Positions 1,327-13,108 are shown, counted from the first letter of the stretch. The stretch is DNA of 64,000 nucleotides from an uncultured Gemmatimonadales bacterium (GCA_963795085.1 CAWCFX010000004.1:288001-352000), one strand, 5' to 3'. A program made the numbers and translations. Notes: generated by a model from the letters alone, not told the origin.

Positions 1327-2216
1327 GCCGGACGCTCCCGGGGGACGACGACCTGGAGCGCGCCGGGATGAATCGCGTAGTGCAGCGGCGGTTTGAGAAT
1401 GGTGACCTCGCCATCCAGGGAGATCCGCAGGCGGCGGTGCCGGGCGTCGATCCAGCACTCGCTGGTGCGGAAGGCATCGAAGTCCTCCCCGGGCCGGACC
1501 TGGCCGAGCAGGGCCCGAATCGAAAACCAGATGAGACGGTAGCGCCCCTGGGCGCGGGGGATGTAAATGCAGAGCTGGCCCTGGTCCAGGGTCTCGCGGG
1601 CGGGCAGCCGTACCCCGTCAAAGAGATATTCGTTGTTCCCCACGAAGACCGCCGACGTCCGCCGGAGGACTTCCTGATCCTCGATGCTGACCTTGATGCC
1701 GAGCCGCTCGTAGTGGGCCAGCGCCTTGAGGGTAGCCCAGATGGCGGCAGGCCACTTGGCCAGGCCGTCCCGCTGCTTGAGCTCCCGGAGCCGGACGATC
1801 GAAGGATAGAGCCCCAGCCCGGAATTGTTGAGGAAGATACGATCGTTCACCTGGGCGTAGTCCACGCTCGCCAGGTTCCCCGCGGTGAGCACTTCGATGG
1901 CGGATTCGATTTCGAGCGGAATCCCCAGGTCCTTGGCGAAGTGGTTGAGGGTCCCCAGGGGAAGCACGCCGAGCGGCGTGCTGGAACCGGCGAGCGCGGC
2001 CGCGACCGAACTGATGGTGCCATCGCCGCCGCCGGCCACCACGATCCGGCTGCCCTCCTCCGCCGCGGCCCGGGCCAGGCCCGTGACATCAGATTCTCCG
2101 TCCATGAATACGATATCGGCGTCGTCGACGAGACTATGGATCAGGTGGGTCAGCCGGTCCCGGGCATCCTCGTCCTTGATACTGCCGGCGCGGCCGTTGA
2201 TCAGGAATCGAATCAT
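1323..2216 (-). CDS. Diacylglycerol/lipid kinase family protein (YegS/DAGK)
   Basis: INGRAG, AGGGDGT, LPLGTLNHFAKDLGIP, LDGE motifs; start MIRFLIN at 2216. Confidence 0.9.
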   Translation of the reverse strand: MIRFLINGRAGSIKDEDARDRLTHLIHSLVDDADIVFMDGESDVTGLARAAAEEGSRIVVAGGGDGTISSVAAALAGSSTPLGVLPLGTLNHFAKDLGIPLEIESAIEVLTAGNLASVDYAQVNDRIFLNNSGLGLYPSIVRLRELKQRDGLAKWPAAIWATLKALAHYERLGIKVSIEDQEVLRRTSAVFVGNNEYLFDGVRLPARETLDQGQLCIYIPRAQGRYRLIWFSIRALLGQVRPGEDFDAFRTSECWIDARHRRLRISLDGEVTILKPPLHYAIHPGALQVVVPRERPA

Positions 2217-2340
2217 AGGGGTGGAGTATCCATCAAACCGGCCGGGGAGGATGTAACCGGGGTTACAGGGACGCGGCCTCGATCCTTTTGGCCCGTAATG
2301 ATTTATTATTCCCGGCCTGCCTCCCCCACACCGGACGTGT

Positions 2341-3690
2341 ATGGGCGTGATCCACCTCCAGACCGAGATCCCCGGCCCGGCCAGCCGTGCCCTGCTGGCC
2401 CGGCGGGAGCGCGCCGTGTCGCGGGCGGTGCCGGCGACCACCCCGCTGGCCATCGTGCAGGCCGACGGTGCGATGGTGACCGACGCCGACGGCAACCGGC
2501 TTATTGATTTCGGGGGCGGGATCGGCACCCTTAACATCGGCCACCGGCATCCCGGGGTCATTGCCGCCATCCGGGAGCAACTGGACCGCTATCTCCACCT
2601 GGCCTTTCCGGTGTCGACCTACGAACCCTACGTGGCCCTGGCCGAGCGGATGAACCGGGTGACCCCGGGCGCCCACGAGAAACGCACCCTCTTTCTCAAC
2701 AGCGGGGCGGAAGCGGTGGAGAACGCGGTCAAGGCGGCCCGCTTCTTCACCGGGCGGCAGGCCATCGTCTGCTTCGACCATGCCTTTCACGGGCGCACCA
2801 ACCTGGCCCTCGGCCTGACAGCCAAGGTGATGCCCTACAAGAAGGGATTCGGCCCGTTCGCGCCGGAGATTTACCGGATTCCCTTTCCGTACTGCTACCG
2901 CTGCCCGGTGGCGGTACGGCGGCCGGCGGGAACCGGTGAGGCCTGCTGCCAGGCCAGCCGGACGTACCTGGACCAGCTGTTCGCCGGCGGGGTTGATCCG
3001 GGTTCGGTGGCGGCCATCGTCATGGAACTGGAACTGGGCGAGGGCGGGTTCGTGCCGGCGCCTGCCGAGTACGTCCGGGAACTGGCCGGGTTCGCGAAGG
3101 CGAACGGCATCCTGTTCATCGCCGACGAAATCCAGACCGGTTTCGGCCGCACCGGCAGGATGTTCGCGTCCGAACACTATGGCCTGGTGCCGGACCTCAT
3201 CGTCACCGCAAAATCGCTGGCGGGCGGGTTGCCGCTGGCCGCGGTGACCGGCCGCGCCGACATCCTTGATGCGCCGCAGGTCGGCGGCCTCGGCGGCACT
3301 TACGGCGGTAATCCCCTGTCCTGCGCGGCGGCGATCGCCGTGCTCGACGCGATGGAATCGGAGCAGATTACCGAGCGGGGCGCCCGGGCAGGCCAGCGGA
3401 TCCGGGAGCGGTTCCAGCGCTGGGCGGCCACTGATCCCGGTATCGGCGACGTCCGGGGCCTCGGCGCAATGATGGCGCTGGAACTGGTGCGCGACCCGGT
3501 CACCCGGGAACCGGACAAGGAACGCACCGGCCGGGTGCTTACCGAAGCACTGTCGCGAGGCGTGATCCTCCTCTCGGCCGGGACCTTTGGCAACGTGATC
3601 CGGGTGCTGGTGCCCCTCACCGTGAGCGACGACATCCTGGAGGAAGGCCTGGCGGTCATGCAGCAGGCGCTGGAGGCCACGCGGGGATGA
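2341..3690 (+). CDS. gabT: 4-aminobutyrate--2-oxoglutarate aminotransferase (class III PLP)
   Basis: DFGGGIG, NSGAEAVENAVK, HAFHGRT, IADEIQTGFGRTG, AKSLAGG (PLP Lys), GGTYGGNP. Confidence 0.88.
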   Translation: MGVIHLQTEIPGPASRALLARRERAVSRAVPATTPLAIVQADGAMVTDADGNRLIDFGGGIGTLNIGHRHPGVIAAIREQLDRYLHLAFPVSTYEPYVALAERMNRVTPGAHEKRTLFLNSGAEAVENAVKAARFFTGRQAIVCFDHAFHGRTNLALGLTAKVMPYKKGFGPFAPEIYRIPFPYCYRCPVAVRRPAGTGEACCQASRTYLDQLFAGGVDPGSVAAIVMELELGEGGFVPAPAEYVRELAGFAKANGILFIADEIQTGFGRTGRMFASEHYGLVPDLIVTAKSLAGGLPLAAVTGRADILDAPQVGGLGGTYGGNPLSCAAAIAVLDAMESEQITERGARAGQRIRERFQRWAATDPGIGDVRGLGAMMALELVRDPVTREPDKERTGRVLTEALSRGVILLSAGTFGNVIRVLVPLTVSDDILEEGLAVMQQALEATRG

Positions 3691-4550
3691 AGAAGCTCCG
3701 GTTCTGGCACTACCTCAAGGCGGCCTTCAACGCACGGCCCTTCGGCATGCTGGTGCCGCCCAACTGGATCGGGCTGGCGCTGTTCGGCCTGCTGGGACTG
3801 ATGAACCCCGGCTTCTGGGTAATCGGGGCGGGACTGGAGCTGGGATACCTGGGCGTGCTGATCACCAGCGGCCGTTTCCAGCGCGCGGTCGCCGCGCGGC
3901 ACAACTCGGCCACAACCGACCAATGGGGCGGCCGGGTGGAGGAACTGGTGGGCCAGCTCAGCGAAGCCGACCAGCGGAAATACGTCGCCCTGCTGGCCCG
4001 CTGCCGCTCCATCCTCGAGCAGCAGGGCCAGGGCGCGGAAACGAGCCTGGTCCAGGGCCTGGAAAGCCAGAACACCAGCCTCAGCCGGCTGGCCTGGCTC
4101 TATCTCCGGCTGCTGCTGATGCGCCGGGCTATCGACAAGGTGCTGGTGGACGACGGCGACCCGGGGAACCGGCACCTTTCCGATCGGATCACCACGCTGG
4201 AAAAGCGGCTGGCCGACGAATCGATCGGCGAAGACCTGCGCCGGAGCCTGGGCGGTCAACTGGCGATCCTGCAGCAGCGGATGGCCCAGCGCACCGAAGG
4301 CGCGGAGAAGATGGCCTTCCTCGACGCCGAGCTGACCCGGATCCATGAGCAGGTGGAACTGATCCGGGAACAGGCGGTGCTGTCCACCGACCCGGACCTC
4401 CTGTCGCAGCGCATTGACGAGATCACGACGACGCTGGGCGGTACCTCCCAGTGGATCCGCGACCAGCAGCAGGTGTACGGCGTCCTGCAGGACCTGGCCG
4501 CCGAGCCTCCACTCCTACCGCTCCGATCCCGGGGCAAAGCGAGCCAGTGA
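3687..4550 (+). CDS. Membrane-anchored coiled-coil protein (2 N-terminal TM segments), first gene of the PspA/AAA operon
   Basis: Hydrophobic N-terminus followed by a long helical/coiled-coil region; ATGA overlap with gabT and GTGA overlap with the ATPase gene. Confidence 0.8.
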   Translation: MKKLRFWHYLKAAFNARPFGMLVPPNWIGLALFGLLGLMNPGFWVIGAGLELGYLGVLITSGRFQRAVAARHNSATTDQWGGRVEELVGQLSEADQRKYVALLARCRSILEQQGQGAETSLVQGLESQNTSLSRLAWLYLRLLLMRRAIDKVLVDDGDPGNRHLSDRITTLEKRLADESIGEDLRRSLGGQLAILQQRMAQRTEGAEKMAFLDAELTRIHEQVELIREQAVLSTDPDLLSQRIDEITTTLGGTSQWIRDQQQVYGVLQDLAAEPPLLPLRSRGKASQ

Positions 4551-6298
4551 CCACTCCGCCGCTTCCCGCGGGCGCTCCGAACGGGACCGCGCTGCCGCCC
4601 TGGGCCGCCGAAATGCGGGACCTGTTCCGGTCCGGCTCGGTGGCGCAGTTCATCGTGCACGGCAACATCTTCGATGTGGTTCCGGCGGGCGGCAAGTTGT
4701 ATCCGCTCAAGCGGTTCATGGAAGAAGTGATGTTCGAGGTGTACGACGTGGTGCTGACCTACGACCGGGGCCGGGGTATTCGCGCCGCCCGGGGCGGCGA
4801 GGACTGGGGCGACTGGCTCAAGGGCGCCGTCGGGATGGATGGCAGCATGCTGGCCCAGCTCCGGGAGCCGGGCCCGGCGCTGGAACTGCTCGACCGGTAC
4901 CTGCTCAGGTCGCTCAACCTCCAGGCGCTCAAAGGCGGCGCCAGCGGCGCGCCCCGGATCGCGGTGGTCATCGATTTCGCCGAGTTCGTGGTGCCCCGGG
5001 GAGACGCGCTGGCACTGGGAGGGCCGTTCAGCGCCAACGTCGTGAAGACCCTGGGCTGGGCCAACGATCCGGCGGTGCTGCAGTCGAACATCATCACCGT
5101 GCTGCTCACCGAGGAGGCGGGGGATCTCAATGAGCTGGTCATGGAGAATCCCCACCAGGCCACCCTGCGCATTCCGCTCCCGGGCGAAGCCGACATGCTG
5201 GAGTACGTGAACACGCTGGCCGCCACCCAGTTTCCGGAACTGGCCGCGAAGTCGGAGGTCCCGCTGGAGGTGCTGGCCCGGCGGCTCACCGGGTTGAGCC
5301 GGATCGGCGCTAGGACAGTGATCGCCCTGGCCCTGCGCAACCACCGCACGATTACGGCGGCCTGGCTGGCCCAGATGAAGAAACAAATGATCGAACGGGA
5401 GTGCCAGGGCCTGCTCGATTTCGTGGAGTCGCCGTTCACCCTGGATCATGTGGCCGGCCACGAGCCGGTCAAGGTCTGGCTCCGGGAGGATACCCTGCTA
5501 CTCAAGCGGGGCGCTCTCCATGCGCTGCCCATGGGGTACCTGATCACCGGCCGGATCGGGACCGGCAAGACCTTCCTGGTGCAGGCCTGGGCCGGGGAGC
5601 TGGGGATCCCCTGCGTGGTCTTCAAGAACTTTCGCGACCGCTGGGTGGGGGCCACCGAATCCAACCTGGAAAAGATCTTCGCGGTCCTCCGGGCGCTGGG
5701 CCAGGTCGTCGTTTTCGTGGACGAGGCCGATCAGGCGGCCGGCAAGCGGGAGGGCGGCGACGGGGACAGCGGGCTCTCCGGCCGGGTCTATTCCATGCTG
5801 GCCAAGGAGATGTCGGACACCCGGAACCGGGGGCGGATCATCTGGGTCTTCGCGACATCGCGCCCCGACCTGCTGGAGGTGGATCTCAAGCGGCAGGGCC
5901 GGCTCGACGTCCATATCCCGCTCTTCCCGCCCCAGACCCGGGACGAACGGCGTGCCCTGCTGCTCGCGGTCGCCCGCAAGCTCAAGGTCCCGGTGACGGA
6001 GGCTGACCTGCCGCCGCTGCCGGAGAACCAGGACCTGGGCGGCAACGAACTGGAAGGGATCCTGGTGCGGGCGCTCCGGGTCCTTGAGCTGGCCCCGGAG
6101 CCGCGGCCGCCGCTCAAGGACATCCTGGCCCAGGTGTTCAGCGAGGTGCGGCCCAGCGCCCATACCCGGAAACTGGAGTACATGGACCTCGTCGCGGTGA
6201 AGGAATGCACCGACGCCCGCTTCCTCCCCCTTCGCTACCGCGACATGGCGCCGGAGGAAATCGAGCGGCAGATTGATGAACTCCGGCGGTTTATCTGA
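4547..6298 (+). CDS. Classical-clade AAA+ ATPase with a degenerate N-terminal AAA-like domain
   Basis: Walker A GRIGTGKT, pore loop DRWVGATESN, Walker B VVVFVDEAD, SRH-like TSRPDLLEVDLKRQGRLD; N-terminal degenerate Walker B (AVVIDFAE). GTG start at 4547. Confidence 0.9.
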   Translation: MTTPPLPAGAPNGTALPPWAAEMRDLFRSGSVAQFIVHGNIFDVVPAGGKLYPLKRFMEEVMFEVYDVVLTYDRGRGIRAARGGEDWGDWLKGAVGMDGSMLAQLREPGPALELLDRYLLRSLNLQALKGGASGAPRIAVVIDFAEFVVPRGDALALGGPFSANVVKTLGWANDPAVLQSNIITVLLTEEAGDLNELVMENPHQATLRIPLPGEADMLEYVNTLAATQFPELAAKSEVPLEVLARRLTGLSRIGARTVIALALRNHRTITAAWLAQMKKQMIERECQGLLDFVESPFTLDHVAGHEPVKVWLREDTLLLKRGALHALPMGYLITGRIGTGKTFLVQAWAGELGIPCVVFKNFRDRWVGATESNLEKIFAVLRALGQVVVFVDEADQAAGKREGGDGDSGLSGRVYSMLAKEMSDTRNRGRIIWVFATSRPDLLEVDLKRQGRLDVHIPLFPPQTRDERRALLLAVARKLKVPVTEADLPPLPENQDLGGNELEGILVRALRVLELAPEPRPPLKDILAQVFSEVRPSAHTRKLEYMDLVAVKECTDARFLPLRYRDMAPEEIERQIDELRRFI

Positions 6299-6356
6299 GG
6301 GGGCCGCCGCCCCCGGTCCACCCGTTTGCCCTTCTTAGCTCACAGGAGACTCTCTG

Positions 6357-7097
6357 ATGGCAATTTTCTCGAGGATCGGGCGCCTTTTCCGGGGCTTTGT
6401 CAGCCTGTTCATCAGCGGCATCGAGGAGCAGAACCCCGAGGCGCTGATGGAGGCGGCGAAACAGGATTTCCGCCAGAAGATGGTCCAGTACAACCTGGCC
6501 CTGGCCCGGATGGGGGGCGTGGCCGAGCGGCTCAAGAACCAGGTGAAGGGCAAGGTGATCCGGATCGGCGAGCTGGAGCGGCGGGTGATGGCCAATCACC
6601 AGGCCGGGAACCTCGAACTGGCGGGCAGCCTGGCCCGGGAACTCCAGGAACTCAAGACCGATGTCACGACCGATACTGACGAACTGAAGGAAACCGAGGA
6701 GGCGTACCAGGCCAACCTCCGGCAGGCCAAGGTGGCCCAGAAAGATTTCGAGGACAAGATCCGCCGGCTGGATAAGCAGCTCTCCCAGGTCAAGATCAAG
6801 GAAGCGCAGGCCGAGGCTGCGGCGGCCCTGGGGAACGCGGCCTTCAAAGTCGGCGATCTGGGCGATACGATGAAAACGGTCGAGGATGCGCTGCAGAAGC
6901 GGTACGAGGTCTCGGCCGGCAAGGCCCGCCTCGCGAAGGACCTGGTGGACATGGACCGGGTGCAGGAGAAAGAGGGCGAGCGTAAGGCGCTGGAACAGGC
7001 AGCCCTGGCCGACTTCCTGGCCTCCCAGGGCATCCAGGCCAGCGGGACCGCGGCGCCCCAGCCGACCGAGAAAGAGATCGGGCCGAAGGGAAGCTGA
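6357..7097 (+). CDS. PspA/IM30 (Vipp1, ESCRT-III superfamily) protein
   Basis: Amphipathic N-terminus MAIFSRIGRLFRGF..IEEQNPEALMEAA, long helical hairpin, 246 aa; SD AGGAG upstream. Confidence 0.85.
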   Translation: MAIFSRIGRLFRGFVSLFISGIEEQNPEALMEAAKQDFRQKMVQYNLALARMGGVAERLKNQVKGKVIRIGELERRVMANHQAGNLELAGSLARELQELKTDVTTDTDELKETEEAYQANLRQAKVAQKDFEDKIRRLDKQLSQVKIKEAQAEAAAALGNAAFKVGDLGDTMKTVEDALQKRYEVSAGKARLAKDLVDMDRVQEKEGERKALEQAALADFLASQGIQASGTAAPQPTEKEIGPKGS

Positions 7098-7158
7098 CGG
7101 GATGTCAGTCCGCTGATGTCAGATCGCAGAGTGAAACCATCCACGCCAGGAGCCTCCT

Positions 7159-8805
7159 GTGGCCGGTGAACCGCGGGTCACCCCGTTTGGCAAGCTGATC
7201 TCCCTTCTCCTCGTGCTCGGTGTAGTGGCGGTGGGGATCTACATGGTCAAGGGCAAGAGCGGGGGGTCTTCGTCCGGCGAGCGCGAGGAGAGCGGGCCCG
7301 CCGAAGTCGCGCAGCTGCAGGTGGAGGTGCCGCGGCTGGCGCCCCCGGCCGCCCACCAGCTCCAGGACAAGACCGTCCCCATCGAAATCAGCGAGTATGC
7401 CGGCTATGCCGGCCTGATCGCGGCCAACGGCGGCCTGGCGCCCAACGAGAACTCGGTCTTCTACCGGAACGGCGGGTTCAAGGTCCGGCTCACGGTGAGC
7501 GAGGAAGAGAGCTGGTCGGCGCTCAACTCGGGCGCCCTCGCCGGCTCGGTCACGACGGTGGACGTGCTGGCCGTCTATGGCCGCCAGTTCCAGGTCACGG
7601 TGCCGGCCCAGATCGGATACTCGCGCGGCGCCGACGGGCTGGTGGTCCGCAGCGAGATCGGTCGGGTCAACGCCCTCCGCGGCAAGGTGATCGCCGCGGC
7701 CCAGTTTACCGAGGTCGATTTCTTCATCCGCTACCTGGCCCAGGAGGCCGGGCTGGGCGTCAATGCGCTGCCCAGCCTGGACGCAACGCCGGATCCCACC
7801 CGGATCAACCTGGTTTACACCGAGGACGGCTTCAGCGCGGGCGACCTCTTCCTTCAGGACCTCACCTCGGGCGCCAACCGGCTGGCGGGCTGCGTCACCT
7901 GGGAGCCCAAGACCTCCGAAGTGGTAGAACGGAGCGGGGGGCAGGCCAGGGTCCTCACCACCAACAAGAACCTGCTGATCGTCGCCGACATCCTGGTGCT
8001 GAACCGCGGGTTCGCCGACCAGAACCCCCAGATTGTCGCCGGATTGGTCCGGGGACTGCTGGAAGGGAACCGCATGGTGCGGGATGACCCGGAAGCCCAC
8101 CTGGATGTGATTGCCCGCGCCTTCAAGTGGAGCCGGGAGGATGCCCGGAGCGAACTGGCCAAGGTCCACCTGTCCAACCTGCCGGAGAACCTGGCATTCT
8201 TCAGCGGAGCCATCGATGCGGCAGGCAGCTTCGGCGGTATTTACCAGTCGGCGGTGCTGGCCTATGGCTCCGGACTGATCAAGGACCCGGTGGACGCGGA
8301 GCGCTTCATGGACCTCGCCGCGCTCAACGCGGCGAAACAGTCCGGCGCCTTTGCCGAGCAGGCGGTCGCCATCGCGCCGATCCGGTCGGGAACCCGGGGC
8401 ACCGTCGAGACCGACCCGCTCCTGAGCAAGGACATCCGGTTCCTCTTTCAGCCCAACTCGTCGGTCCTCGACCTGGAGAACCAGGACAACCTGGCCAATC
8501 TGGACGCCATCAAGCGGCTGCTGCAGGTGAGCCCGGGATCCACCATCCTGCTCCGGGGCCATGTGGACAATGCCCTGGTCGCCCAGTTCCGGCAGCAGGG
8601 CGGCGAGTCCTTCGTGCGGCAGATGGCGCTCAAGGCGGTGGAACTGAGCAAGAACCGCGCGGCGGAGATCCGCCGGGTGCTCACCGAGCGGCTCCGGGTG
8701 GATCCCAAACGGCTGGAAGTAGTGGGCCGCGGCTGGGAAGAGCCAGCCGGCACCGACTCGGAGCAGAACCGGCGGGTCGAAGTGCAGTGGTTCACGGTCG
8801 AGTAG
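7159..8805 (+). CDS. Membrane-anchored type II periplasmic binding protein (NMT1/SsuA-like) fused to a C-terminal OmpA-like peptidoglycan-binding domain
   Basis: N-terminal TM; binding-protein motifs GYSRGADGLVV and VTWEP; OmpA-C motifs GHVD, LSKNRA, VGRGWEEP, NRRVEV. Confidence 0.85.
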   Translation: MAGEPRVTPFGKLISLLLVLGVVAVGIYMVKGKSGGSSSGEREESGPAEVAQLQVEVPRLAPPAAHQLQDKTVPIEISEYAGYAGLIAANGGLAPNENSVFYRNGGFKVRLTVSEEESWSALNSGALAGSVTTVDVLAVYGRQFQVTVPAQIGYSRGADGLVVRSEIGRVNALRGKVIAAAQFTEVDFFIRYLAQEAGLGVNALPSLDATPDPTRINLVYTEDGFSAGDLFLQDLTSGANRLAGCVTWEPKTSEVVERSGGQARVLTTNKNLLIVADILVLNRGFADQNPQIVAGLVRGLLEGNRMVRDDPEAHLDVIARAFKWSREDARSELAKVHLSNLPENLAFFSGAIDAAGSFGGIYQSAVLAYGSGLIKDPVDAERFMDLAALNAAKQSGAFAEQAVAIAPIRSGTRGTVETDPLLSKDIRFLFQPNSSVLDLENQDNLANLDAIKRLLQVSPGSTILLRGHVDNALVAQFRQQGGESFVRQMALKAVELSKNRAAEIRRVLTERLRVDPKRLEVVGRGWEEPAGTDSEQNRRVEVQWFTVE

Positions 8806-9251
8806 CGGGTGCCCGGTCCTGGCGGTCGCCCTCGTAAGCGCGTTGGAGCACCCGCGGACATCGTGATTGATCTCCGCCACCGCACTCACGGCCGATCCGG
8901 TGGGTGATCCGGTTGCCCTTCCGTTCGCCTCCGGTTGAGACCAGACGTCCCACCGGTTTCACGCCGCGTAGACAGAGACCCAGGCCACCCGGGCCTGGGT
9001 GGCCGGCTTCACCCGGGCAAAGACCCGGCGGCGGTACAGGGGCACGAGGGTTTTTACCGGCGACATGGTGACATCGGGCCCCAGCCCCAGGGCGACCGTC
9101 AGCAATGCATCGAGGATCGGCCGGAGCGCGGCCTCCTTTCCCGAGAACATCGCCTCTACCCGGGCGCGTCGAGGAGATACCGGGCCGCATCCGCCGCGGT
9201 GCCCATCCGCCGAATGCCGGGATGCAGGGTGTACGGGTAAACAGGATCCAT
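8792..9251 (-). pseudogene. Degraded DUF5655-like gene with 4 frameshifts
   Basis: Joining frames gives MDPVYPYTLHPGIRRM...RYLLDAP-VEAMFSGKEAALRPILDALL...SPVKTLVPLYRRRVFARVKPATQARV-LGLCLRG...GRLVSTGG..KGNRITHRI-VSAVAEINHDVRG-LQRAYEGD. Shifts near 9160, 8985, 8890 and 8850. Family assignment is from recall. Confidence 0.7.
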
Positions 9252-9299
9252 GCCGTCTCGCTGGATGATGTGTGCGCCTCCCCCGTCGGAGAGGACCGC

Positions 9300-10571
9300 G
9301 TGGCTTCCATCTGGCTCAAGGATATCGCCGCTACGGAGGAATCCGTGCCGCCCCTGCCGGCCCGCGCCGATGTGGTGGTGATCGGCGGCGGCTATACCGG
9401 CGTGGCCGCCGCGCTGGCGCTCGCCGCAGCGGGAGCGAGCGTAACGGTGCTGGACCGGGAGGCGATGGGCTTTGGGGCCAGCACCCGGAACGGGGGGTTC
9501 GTGCTTCCCGGGTTCAAGCGGGAGTACTCCGCGCTGCGGCGCGCCTGGGGCCAGGACGCGGCCCGGCGGCTCTTCCTGGAGTCCCTGGAATCCATCGTCT
9601 CGCTCGAGTCGCTCATCGCGGCAGAGTCCGTGGATTGCGATTTCCGGCGGGTGGGCCATATCACGCTCGCCGAAACGGCCGGCCAGCTACGGTCGCTCGA
9701 TACGGAGCGCACACTGCTCGCCGGTTCAGCCGGCCATGCCACGCACCTGTTGGAATCATCCGACCTGGGCCAGGAGATCGGGTCGCCGCGCTACCTCGGC
9801 GGGCTCCTCGATCCGGCGGCCGGTTCGCTGCACCCGGCCCGGTTGTTTGCCGGGCTGCTCCGGGCGGCGGTGCGGCGGGGGGCGGTCGCGCTGGCTCGAA
9901 CCGAGGCCACCCGGATCGAAGGGACTCCCGGCAAGTTCGTGGTCCATACAAGTCGCGGCCCGATTCCCGGCGCGCACGTGCTGGTCGCCACCAACGGGTA
10001 CAGCGGCCCGGTCCACCGGGGGTTTCGCCGCCGGGTGGTCCCCGTGGGCAGCCATATCATTGCCACCGCGCCGCTGGCCCCGGAGCTGGCCCGGGATCTC
10101 ATTCCACGCCAGCGCGTGCTGAGCGACAGCCGCCACCTGCTGCACTACTTCCGAATGTCGTACGATGGCCGGCTGATCTTCGGCGGCCGGGCGTCCTTCC
10201 GCACGGCGGGGGGAGAGTCGGACCCGGTGGCGGCCGCCGTCCTTCGCGAGGACATGGTGTCGGTGTTTCCCCAGCTTCACGGCTGTCCGGTCGAACGGAC
10301 CTGGTCGGGGAACGTGGCCTTTACCCGCGACCGGATGCCTCACCTGGGCCGGCTGGACGGGGTATATGCGGCGGGCGGGTATTGCGGACACGGGGTCGCC
10401 ATGGCCATATACCTTGGCACCCGGGCCGGGGAGCACCTTGCCCGCGGCGCTGCGCTTCCTTTCCTGAGCACCCTGAGTTTCCCGGCGGTGCCGCTCTACA
10501 CCGGCCGGCCCTGGTTTCTTCCCCTGGCCGGTGCCTGGTACCGGCTGCTGGATTGGACGGCGCGCCGCTGA
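9300..10571 (+). CDS. FAD-dependent oxidoreductase, PuuB/OrdL-like (gamma-glutamylputrescine oxidase family)
   Basis: VVVIGGGYTG, GASTRNGG, VATNGY, GYCGHGV; GTG start at 9300 after GGAGAGG; polyamine gene context. Confidence 0.85.
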   Translation: MASIWLKDIAATEESVPPLPARADVVVIGGGYTGVAAALALAAAGASVTVLDREAMGFGASTRNGGFVLPGFKREYSALRRAWGQDAARRLFLESLESIVSLESLIAAESVDCDFRRVGHITLAETAGQLRSLDTERTLLAGSAGHATHLLESSDLGQEIGSPRYLGGLLDPAAGSLHPARLFAGLLRAAVRRGAVALARTEATRIEGTPGKFVVHTSRGPIPGAHVLVATNGYSGPVHRGFRRRVVPVGSHIIATAPLAPELARDLIPRQRVLSDSRHLLHYFRMSYDGRLIFGGRASFRTAGGESDPVAAAVLREDMVSVFPQLHGCPVERTWSGNVAFTRDRMPHLGRLDGVYAAGGYCGHGVAMAIYLGTRAGEHLARGAALPFLSTLSFPAVPLYTGRPWFLPLAGAWYRLLDWTARR

Positions 10572-10604
10572 GAGCGGCACCAGGCCAACTCGATCGGGGA
10601 CATC

Positions 10605-11747
10605 ATGAGCCCACGGCAGGAAGCCAGCGATCTGGTCCACGCGCTCGAGAGCGGCGCCATTACCCGGCGCGCATTCGTGCTGCGGGCCGCGGCGCTGGGC
10701 CTCAGCCTGGGGACTATCGGCCTGGTCCTCGGCGCCTGCCGGGGCAAGGCCGAGCCGCCCGCCGCCGAGGCGGACCTGGGACCCATCGGCACCGCACTCA
10801 GCATCTACAACTGGTCGGACTATATCGCGAAAGAAGCCATCACCGGCTTCGAGAAGGAGTTCGGGGTCAGGGTCTCCTACAACACGTACGAAAGCAACGA
10901 GGAACTGGCCGCCAAGCTGCAGACCGGCATCTCGCCCTATGACCTGGCGGTGCCCTCCGGTTACCTGGTGCCCGCGCTGGCGGCGGCCGGCCTCCTCGCC
11001 CCGCTCAACCGCCAGTACCTCACCAACTGGGACAATATCTCGCCCCTGTTCCTTGACCTGGGCAGCGACCCGGGGAACCGGTACTCGGTGCCCTGGCAGT
11101 GGGGCACGACCGGGGTGGCCTACCGGAGCGACAAGCTGGCCGCACCCCCGGCCAGCTGGGGCGTTTTCCAGGATCCCCGCTATCGGCGGCGGATGACGAT
11201 GATGGACGAGGGGCGCGAAGTGATCGGGGCCTGGCTCCGCTACCGGGGCCATTCCGTGAACAGCGTGAGCGGGCCGGAACTCGACGCGGCACGCGCCGAT
11301 GGCCTGGCGGCCGCCGGTCACCTGGCGGGCTTCGTATCGGGACCGGTCAAGGACCGCCTGGTCTCCGGCGAAATCTGGGTCGCCCAGCTCTGGAACGGCG
11401 ACACCACCCAGGCCCGGGTCCGCGAACCGGCGATCGCTTATGCCCTGCCCGCGGAGGGCGGCACGATCTGGACCGATTCCCTGGTGGTCCCCCGGTCCGC
11501 GCCCCACAAGCGGGCCGCGCACGAGTTCCTGAACTACATCCTGCGGCCCGACGTGGCCGCTTCCATTTCCAACGCCACCGGCTATGGATCCCCCAACGCG
11601 AAGGCGGTGCTGGACCAGCCGGTGCCTTTCCCCGCGCCGGATGAACTCTCCCGCCTGGAATACCAGGCCGACCTGGGTGAGAAGTCCTATCTCTGGGACC
11701 TCATCTGGTCGGACATCCGGGCCCACGGAGCCGGCTCACTCTCCTGA
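10605..11747 (+). CDS. Spermidine/putrescine-binding protein (PotD/PotF family) with twin-arginine signal and lipobox
   Basis: YNWSDYI, YESNEE, YSVPWQWGTTG, WNGD, EGGTIWTDS; TRRAFV and LGAC in the leader. Confidence 0.9.
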   Translation: MSPRQEASDLVHALESGAITRRAFVLRAAALGLSLGTIGLVLGACRGKAEPPAAEADLGPIGTALSIYNWSDYIAKEAITGFEKEFGVRVSYNTYESNEELAAKLQTGISPYDLAVPSGYLVPALAAAGLLAPLNRQYLTNWDNISPLFLDLGSDPGNRYSVPWQWGTTGVAYRSDKLAAPPASWGVFQDPRYRRRMTMMDEGREVIGAWLRYRGHSVNSVSGPELDAARADGLAAAGHLAGFVSGPVKDRLVSGEIWVAQLWNGDTTQARVREPAIAYALPAEGGTIWTDSLVVPRSAPHKRAAHEFLNYILRPDVAASISNATGYGSPNAKAVLDQPVPFPAPDELSRLEYQADLGEKSYLWDLIWSDIRAHGAGSLS

Positions 11748-11761
11748 ACGGACCCCCGCCC

Positions 11762-13102
<1,341 letters not shown>

Positions 13103-13108
<6 letters not shown>

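Follow-up and report, generated by a model that had tools for sequence, protein, structure and literature searches.

A cross-phylum gene cassette that pairs a divergent PspA with a Cdc48-like tandem AAA ATPase: a candidate for ATP-driven remodeling of a bacterial ESCRT-III-type polymer

How bacterial ESCRT-III-type polymers, such as those of PspA and Vipp1, get taken apart is an open question; according to a passage of a 2025 review (PMC7619361), a Vps4-like ATPase "appears absent in bacteria." The question is raised by a locus of an uncultured Gemmatimonadales bacterium. In the stretch analyzed here (64,000 nt, GCA_963795085.1 CAWCFX010000004.1:288001-352000; G+C content, ~68%), which is called the window and to which all coordinates refer, four co-oriented open reading frames (ORFs) on the plus strand, designated g1 to g4, fill positions 3687-8805 (Table 1). 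They encode a membrane-anchored helical protein, an AAA ATPase, a PspA, and a periplasmic binding protein fused to an OmpA-like domain. A first-pass annotation, made before any comparison with databases, had read these four genes as an ESCRT-III-like operon with its own disassembly ATPase, and the ORFs were indeed found where it had placed them, all in the same orientation. They form a widespread, probably horizontally shared envelope cassette that is made up of two tightly coupled gene pairs, and we think, with moderate confidence, that their joint function is the ATP-driven disassembly or reshaping of a PspA polymer by an ATPase that would do the work of Vps4 with a Cdc48-like architecture.

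The passages of Ravi et al. (2024, mSystems; PMC11237479) on such neighborhoods describe a PspA that co-occurs with a protein of two AAA+ domains, the N-terminal copy being inactive, and also a membrane-anchored divergent Snf7-like protein and a PBPB+OmpA protein with ATP-binding cassette (ABC) genes (example, OGG56892.1); from comparative genomics, these authors propose an ATP-dependent membrane remodeling comparable to that by Snf7/Vps4. The window falls into the class described there, since it has a PspA, a fusion of a periplasmic binding protein with OmpA, and a transmembrane helical protein directly upstream of a classical AAA ATPase with one inactive and one active domain. Proteins, domain architectures, and hypothesis are the same as in those passages, and the window differs from them in the gene order g1-g2-g3-g4 and in having no ABC genes. 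The first-pass annotation had mentioned similar neighborhoods from comparative surveys of psp genes, which the architecture in Ravi et al. bears out, and it knew of no experimental characterization; in agreement with this, full-text literature searches, with most subscription journals outside their coverage, returned no experimental study of the ATPase family or of the cassette. The cassette has thus already been predicted in print from comparative genomics and is experimentally untouched as far as the searches show. What the present analysis adds to the published prediction is that the ATPase has a type II, Cdc48-like fold, that the cassette is modular and consists of two pairs (g1-g2 and g3-g4), that loci lacking the ABC genes form a derived clade, that some lineages have an additional conserved gene, and that the assignment of g1 to Snf7 is doubtful.

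The ATPase, g2, carries the motifs of a classical AAA ATPase in its C-terminal domain (D2). PF00004 (AAA), the sole Pfam family found in g2, matched residues 332-458 with an E value of 1.4e-23, and this region contains Walker A (GRIGTGKT, residues 335-342), pore loop 1 (RWVGATE, 365-371), Walker B (VFVDEAD, 389-395), a TSRPD motif (437-441), and the arginine fingers (KRQGR, 448-452). The key residues of Walker A and Walker B, the RWVG of the pore loop (365-368), and the arginine fingers R449 and R452 were invariant in 40 diverse relatives with identities down to 28%. The start codon at 4547 is required because a conserved LPxWA motif (residues 16-20), which is kept in distant relatives, precedes the next ATG. 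The first-pass annotation had assigned g2 to the classical clade and had seen an apparently inactive AAA-like domain at its N terminus, and both assignments held. In the N-terminal 290 residues, which make up a degenerate AAA domain (D1), other sequences stand in the place of the P loop and of Walker B (Table 1), and a profile of the N-terminal half aligned to the AAA profile of the C-terminal half, starting around Walker B and reaching the lid (hhalign probability, 61%; E = 8e-5; 139 columns). Moreover, an AlphaFold2 model of g2 (predicted local distance difference test [pLDDT] score, 90.3; predicted template modeling [pTM] score, 0.86) matched tandem D1-D2 ATPases in Foldseek: it aligned over ~590 to 620 columns with Rix7, Cdc48, p97, NVL, and AFG2 (E = 2.7e-20 for Rix7 and 1.2e-19 for Cdc48), with template modeling scores of 0.50 to 0.57 for the best of them.

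By sequence, the nearest solved chains to g2 were D2 of VAT, Cdc48, and p97 (E = 6e-36), and no Vps4 chain was among the best 60 solved relatives. Since the model aligns end to end with Rix7, Cdc48, and p97, g2 is of the type II, Cdc48-like and not of the Vps4-like build; on this point the first-pass annotation, which had drawn the comparison with Vps4, has to be revised. The scores of g2 were far below the equivalog cutoffs for CDC48 (TIGR01243; 68 versus 802 bits), FtsH (62 versus 600 bits), and CdvC (NF041006; 40 versus 650 bits). Only ~30 residues precede D1 in the model, and neither a double-psi-barrel nor any other Cdc48-type N domain is seen there. Accordingly, g2 is a member of a distinct family of type II, Cdc48-like classical AAA ATPases with a dead D1. 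The family comprises 816 clusters at 50% identity (E ≤ 1e-30), and a 583-aa protein identical to g2 is already on record. Four longer relatives (P0249, P0257, P0262, and P0270; 818 to 856 aa) have a three-domain form, in which two successive degenerate AAA-like domains precede the active one; a fused partner in these proteins was considered and rejected, as the extra region is the second degenerate AAA-like domain instead.

The association of the ATPase with PspA was examined in a survey of one genome per species, which was searched with a 12-sequence alignment of the ATPase and gave 576 confirmed stretches. The best 80 loci were kept, and the ORFs called in them were searched with two-round hidden Markov models (HMMs) seeded with the proteins of the window; 45 of the 80 loci had at least 5.5 kb on both sides of the ATPase and are called complete. 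PspA was encoded in 41 of the 45 complete loci, in keeping with the co-occurrence that the first-pass annotation had proposed, g1 in 40, g4 in 39, all three in 39, and none of them in 4. The corresponding numbers for all 80 loci were 66, 65, 61, 53, and 5. The gene for g1 lay directly upstream of the ATPase gene in 65 of the 80 loci, and g4 followed PspA in 61. The order of the window, g1-g2-g3-g4, was found in 22 of the 80 loci; 18 had one extra gene between g2 and g3, and 2 had a gap of ~4 kb at this place. In 20 further loci, the pairs were exchanged (g3-g4-[~1.8 kb]-g1-g2), 4 loci had a PspA-ATPase dyad without g1 and g4, and 14, many of them on short contigs, had no PspA. Thus, g1-g2 and g3-g4 stay adjacent in either order, that is, as g1-g2-g3-g4 or as g3-g4-ABC-ABC-g1-g2. 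Carriers of the cassette are Acidobacteriota, Planctomycetota, Gemmatimonadota, Myxococcota, and others, the two pairs co-occurring across at least six phyla, and the recurrence of the cassette across phyla exceeds chance. Three relatives of the same family kept all four genes and none of the genes that flank them in the window. Given this conservation of all four genes as a unit, there are good grounds for linking the ATPase functionally to PspA.

An extra gene between the ATPase and PspA genes was seen in 21 loci (e.g., L015 8725-9387, plus strand). Its product of ~205 aa has no Pfam family and consists of an N-terminal amphipathic helix, a helix with the sequence DAxARDQALDAYE, and a C-terminal coiled coil; with this sequence as the query, it was not found in the genome of the window.

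The first-pass annotation had noted that no ABC permease or ATPase stands beside the binding protein, and in fact none was present in the eleven ORFs scanned among those between 535 and 14174; the best homologue in this genome of the permease of the relatives shares only 33% identity with it and lies on a different contig. In the relatives with exchanged pairs, the insert of ~1.8 kb was scanned in 5 of the 22 loci with such a gap, and each time it held genes for a BPD_transp_1 permease and an ABC_tran ATPase. We placed the window in a quick, midpoint-rooted tree of the ATPases (74 rows, i.e., the window and 73 loci, without the seven in which the ATPase ORF was fragmented), in which the two arrangements without ABC genes made up one clade of 40 rows (SH-like approximate likelihood ratio test [SH-aLRT] support, 99) and the loci with ABC genes lay outside it. 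According to this tree, the lack of ABC genes marks a derived clade that includes the window, and deeper-branching relatives have these genes inserted. The window grouped with four Gemmatimonadota loci; elsewhere in the tree, the ATPases of Acidobacteriota, Planctomycetota, Gemmatimonadota, Myxococcota, and Pseudomonadota were intermixed. Most of the surveyed ATPases were 58 to 80% identical to that of the window, across phyla, and this, together with the intermixing, suggests that the whole cassette has spread horizontally under strong constraint.

The candidate polymer protein, g3, matched PF04012 (PspA_IM30) over residues 3-216 with 36.5 bits, above the cutoff of 33.9, and all 37 aligned relatives of g3 matched this family at an E value of ≤0.01 (best, 5.9e-17). 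The profile of the g3 family also matched solved chains of Vipp1 (8qhv and 7o3w) and PspA (8qbw) over profile positions 1-190, with E values of 9e-12 to 1e-7; by these profile matches, g3 is a bona fide relative of PspA/Vipp1. The protein begins with an amphipathic helix, and its C-terminal tail, ALAxFLAxQGI ... KxxGP, is conserved. A canonical PspA (PF04012, 159 bits) is encoded by the same genome on another contig (contig C6, 137646-138299; L001 1396-2157, minus strand) and is 27% identical to g3 over the first 143 residues, the N-terminal amphipathic helix included. Because this canonical copy lies away from the cassette, g3 is an extra, specialized paralogue.

The product of the gene that follows, g4, starts with a short cytoplasmic tail, crosses the membrane once (anchor, residues 13-30), and continues in the periplasm with a binding domain and an OmpA-like domain (residues 429-540). 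The latter matched PF00691 with 44.7 bits (cutoff, 27.2; E = 1.7e-11). The first-pass reading of g4, a binding protein that is anchored in the membrane and carries a peptidoglycan domain of the OmpA type, is supported. The OmpA-like domain contains the motifs GHVD, LSKNRA, and NRRVEV; OmpA motifs of this type bind peptidoglycan. Residues 246-388 resemble the SsuA family (TIGR01728; 48.9 bits, under the cutoff of 163.5; E = 4.9e-13) and NMT1_2 (E = 0.085), which is a likeness of fold class only. Among 50 sequences of g4, the binding-protein core was well conserved and a motif of the cytoplasmic tail, TPxGK, moderately so.

The first gene of the cassette, g1, resisted assignment. Its product starts with an amphipathic helix, which is followed by two hydrophobic helices and a helical domain of ~225 aa, and the hairpin anchor would place this C-terminal domain in the cytoplasm. 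Conservation clusters in the hairpin (PPNW, NPGFW, and GLELGYL, followed by RFQR), in several of the cytoplasmic helices, and in a C-terminal motif. The invariant residues of the hairpin region are P25, N26, W27, P41, G42, F43, R63, F64, Q65, and R66; in the C-terminal motif, Q260, Q261, G265, D269, L270, E273, and P275 were invariant in 33 sequences, and the motif was still conserved in 53. The conserved C-terminal tails of g1 and g3 are possible docking sites. At least 2210 relatives of g1 were found at an E value of ≤1e-3, none of them with a Pfam domain, and g1 itself belongs to no Pfam or NCBIfam family. Its AlphaFold2 model is all-helical (pLDDT, 82).

A relationship of g1 to Snf7 or PspA, as suspected in the first-pass annotation, did not emerge from any comparison made. 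When 33 members of the g1 family were searched against Pfam at an E value of ≤10, Snf7 and PspA_IM30 were absent among the matches listed (25 of 75 families), which contained only coiled-coil noise, and the Snf7 HMM gave no match at the g1 coordinates in five genomes carrying the cassette. An hhalign comparison with the profile of the cassette's own PspA gave a probability of 0.2%. With Foldseek, the g1 model had no match in the PDB at an E value of ≤1e-3; with VIA-align, the best Z score was 9.9, to unrelated helical proteins, a value under the meaningful level for helical bundles; and a sequence profile search of the PDB returned nothing credible. The present comparisons therefore do not reproduce the label "divergent Snf7" that Ravi et al. 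give in the passages cited above. By a language-model search, the clusters closest to g1 were, on two occasions, ones with the Rv2743c (PspM) family in a minority of their members (15 to 40%; scores, 0.82 to 0.87). This is no more than a lead; the Rv2743c HMM did not match g1 in its own genome, and none of 201 genomes of the phylum exceeded its cutoff. One apparent fusion of g1 in a longer protein was rejected: the sole match, P0341, has patchy similarity and is an apparent frameshifted read-through.

Table 1. Coordinates in the window of the cassette genes, their main domains and motifs, and the adjoining upstream gene
Feature	Position	Strand	Description
g1	3687..4550	+	287 aa; ORF; 2-TM (transmembrane) helical membrane protein, no known family
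g1 hydrophobic hairpin	3756..3866	+	Residues 24-60, then RFQR; model helices 25-39 and 41-60; predicted membrane anchor
g1 C-terminal motif	4464..4523	+	QQxYGxxxDLxxEPPxL; candidate docking motif
g2	4547..6298	+	583 aa; GTG start; tandem AAA ATPase, degenerate D1 and active classical D2
g2 D1	4634..5401	+	Inactive AAA-like domain; HGNIFD replaces Walker A, VVIDFAEF replaces Walker B
g2 D2	5444..6091	+	Active classical AAA domain; PF00004 and intact motifs
g3	6357..7097	+	246 aa; divergent PspA/IM30 (ESCRT-III superfamily)
g4	7159..8805	+	548 aa; TM-anchored SsuA/NMT1-like binding protein fused to OmpA-like domain
Class III aminotransferase	2341-3690	+	Upstream of g1; stop overlaps g1 start by 4 bases (ATGA)

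Within the cassette, the stop codon of g1 and the start codon of g2 overlap by 4 bases (GTGA); the gaps between g2 and g3 and between g3 and g4 are 58 and 61 nt, and in either gap a purine-rich stretch precedes the start codon. A scan of positions 2000-9600 for promoters and terminators, which is weak at 68% G+C, gave no plus-strand site inside the cassette. Right after the stop codon of the ATPase gene (6299-6325, plus strand), there is a 6-bp GC hairpin, GGGGGC-CGCC-GCCCCC, without a U-run, that could modulate the expression of g3-g4 relative to g1-g2; the folds of this and the other two junctions were no better than those of shuffled sequences (z = -0.97, -1.29, and +0.59). Downstream of the cassette (9105-13108, plus strand) follow a DAO-type flavin adenine dinucleotide (FAD)-dependent oxidoreductase, an SBP_bac_8 (PotD/PotF-like) binding protein, and a second class III aminotransferase. 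Together with the upstream aminotransferase, these genes look like an amine or polyamine utilization cluster that encloses the cassette. As the stop codon of the upstream aminotransferase gene overlaps the start of g1, this gene may be cotranscribed with the cassette here. As a component of the system, the aminotransferase was rejected: a homologue was near the cassette in 1 of the 80 loci, and none was beside it in five relatives. A reading as a defense system was rejected as well, since PADLOC reported only a generic AAA similarity of g2 to IetA and nothing for g1, g3, and g4.

What the four proteins might do together can be put as follows. Established directly were the order and overlaps of the genes, the identities of the domains, the integrity of the catalytic motifs, the tandem fold of the AAA domains, and the synteny across phyla. 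ATP-driven remodeling of PspA is supported by this synteny, by the overlap and the short gaps in the window with no terminator-like plus-strand site between the genes, by the ATPase motifs and the fold of a threading unfoldase, by the presence of a genuine PspA, by the conserved tails, and by the hypothesis that Ravi et al. reached independently. In the first pair, the divergent PspA would assemble, at the cytoplasmic side of the inner membrane, into a polymer of the ESCRT-III type, and g4, anchored in the inner membrane with its binding domain in the periplasm, would also grip peptidoglycan through its OmpA domain; according to periplasmic solute or wall state, g4 would place or trigger the assembly of PspA, signaling then presumably running from the periplasm to the cytoplasm. 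In the second pair, the two-transmembrane-helix protein g1 would contact the ATPase, a presumed hexameric, Cdc48-like tandem AAA unfoldase, and recruit it to the membrane. Its degenerate D1 is probably structural or serves substrate recognition, D2 being the active ring; the pore loops of D2 would pull on PspA, the putative substrate, or on g1 itself, and the polymer would thereby be disassembled, recycled, or reshaped. Such a machine, whose four genes are presumably cotranscribed, would be a functional analogue of Vps4 acting on ESCRT-III that was reached by a different AAA architecture.

Several observations weigh against ATP-driven remodeling of PspA. The ATPase family is also found without PspA, 4 of the 45 complete loci having none of the partners, and a more distant relative had only g1-g2 within 18 kb. 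In two related loci without g1, PspA, and g4 (L053 8689-10429, Vulcanimicrobiota; L055 8772-9716, "Bacterium"), a Ser/Thr protein kinase gene follows that of the ATPase; next in L053 only is a gene for a PilZ-domain protein, the next ORF of L055 being without a Pfam family. Neither the Pfam scan nor the alignment of the model revealed an MIT domain or any other recognizable ESCRT-III-binding domain in g2. The sensor-1 residue, canonically Asn in classical AAA ATPases, is Ser in g2 and Ser, Ala, or Cys across the family. A polymer that includes g1 is not supported because g1 could not be tied to ESCRT-III. Given the overlap with the aminotransferase gene, the transcription unit in the window may be larger than the cassette. 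Finally, the N-domain of the ATPase was found in only 19 of 301 genomes searched in the phylum of the window (7 of 128 genera), and because of this patchiness the cassette is accessory. The ATPases without PspA and the missing ESCRT-III-binding domain also speak for the main alternative, in which g1 and the ATPase would be a machine for the quality control or extraction of membrane proteins comparable to Cdc48, Msp1, or FtsH; it would act on other proteins of the envelope, e.g., g4 or the ABC transporter of the relatives, and PspA would merely seal or stabilize the membrane. It fits well that the fold and the nearest solved relatives of g2 are general unfoldases and not Vps4 and that the ATPase gene adjoins that of a membrane protein, with which it is translationally coupled in the window. 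However, PspA is as constant a neighbor of the ATPase as g1 is (41 and 40 of the 45 complete loci), dyads of PspA and ATPase without g1 and g4 exist, and the cassette contains no protease domain or partner. We consider this alternative unlikely.

Two other explanations fit the conservation data less well. The core of the system could be an ABC importer for solute uptake or osmoregulation whose binding protein is tethered to the wall, PspA and the ATPase being accessory assembly or stress factors; the window would then have lost the transporter genes and would hold a partly decayed or rewired remnant. The permease and ATPase genes between g4 and g1 in the deeper-branching relatives and the grouping of all arrangements without them in one derived clade are what this explanation would draw on, as is the ProX binding protein in some archaeal ESCRT loci, which is mentioned in a passage of Makarova et al. 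(2024). Decay does not fit, however, with the clade without ABC genes, in which all four genes are intact and highly conserved and g4 has been kept in 40 loci, and the distant permease homologue on another contig argues against it as well; we regard a transporter as the core to be improbable. It would be still more surprising, and we give it very little credence, if g1-g2 and g3-g4 were unrelated modules that share a mobile segment and have no joint function. When the gene order changes, it is these two pairs that stay together, either pair can occur without the other, and the cassette moves between phyla, all of which would be expected of hitchhiking genes; on the other hand, the pairs co-occur in 39 of the 45 complete loci and in two orders, and the cassette is conserved while its flanks are not.

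As in the archaeal and eukaryotic ESCRT-III systems with Vps4/CdvC, the gene for a polymer protein of the ESCRT-III superfamily is linked to that for a classical-clade AAA ATPase; g2 shares with Vps4/CdvC the aromatic pore loop and two arginine fingers, and the conserved C-terminal tail of the polymer protein could act as the handle. In contrast to Vps4/CdvC, in which one AAA cassette follows an MIT domain, g2 is a tandem D1-D2 protein without MIT, and unlike in those systems, the polymer protein is of the PspA and not of the Snf7 type and a wall-bound partner is present in the periplasm. With Cdc48/p97/VAT and Rix7/NVL, g2 has in common that both AAA domains align structurally over the full length, with D2 also similar in sequence. 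Unlike Cdc48/p97/VAT, it has no N-terminal substrate or adaptor domain, its D1 has lost Walker A, and its link to the membrane would be made by g1. A PspA with a small membrane partner is also known from PspA-PspF with PspB/PspC of Escherichia coli, LiaI-LiaH of Bacillus subtilis, and PspA-PspM (Rv2744c-Rv2743c) of Mycobacterium tuberculosis, and in the Psp system of E. coli, PspA is likewise paired with an AAA+ protein. That protein, PspF, is an enhancer-binding AAA+ protein of the NtrC type that is inhibited by PspA; it is not a classical-clade unfoldase, and the cassette, unlike the Psp system of E. coli, has no transcription factor.

A bolder version of the favored reading, remodeling of PspA by the ATPase, can be put forward tentatively, and we think it rather less probable than its opposite. 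Several phyla would have evolved an ATP-driven ESCRT-III machine of their own, independent of Vps4, in which a membrane-recruited Cdc48-like double-ring unfoldase threads the tail of a dedicated PspA paralogue and so disassembles or constricts the polymer; a peptidoglycan-tethered solute receptor would gate the process from the periplasm, and g1 would be a PspM-like anchor and not a Snf7 protein. Such a machine would be at odds with current statements that bacteria lack a Vps4-type regulation of ESCRT-III.

Compact and highly conserved, the cassette is a candidate for the missing disassembly activity of bacterial ESCRT-III-type polymers, and many phyla of soils and sediments contain it. If the ATPase acts on its PspA, the four proteins would be a minimal system for ATP-driven ESCRT-III remodeling, one in which this remodeling would be linked to a periplasmic, cell wall-bound receptor.

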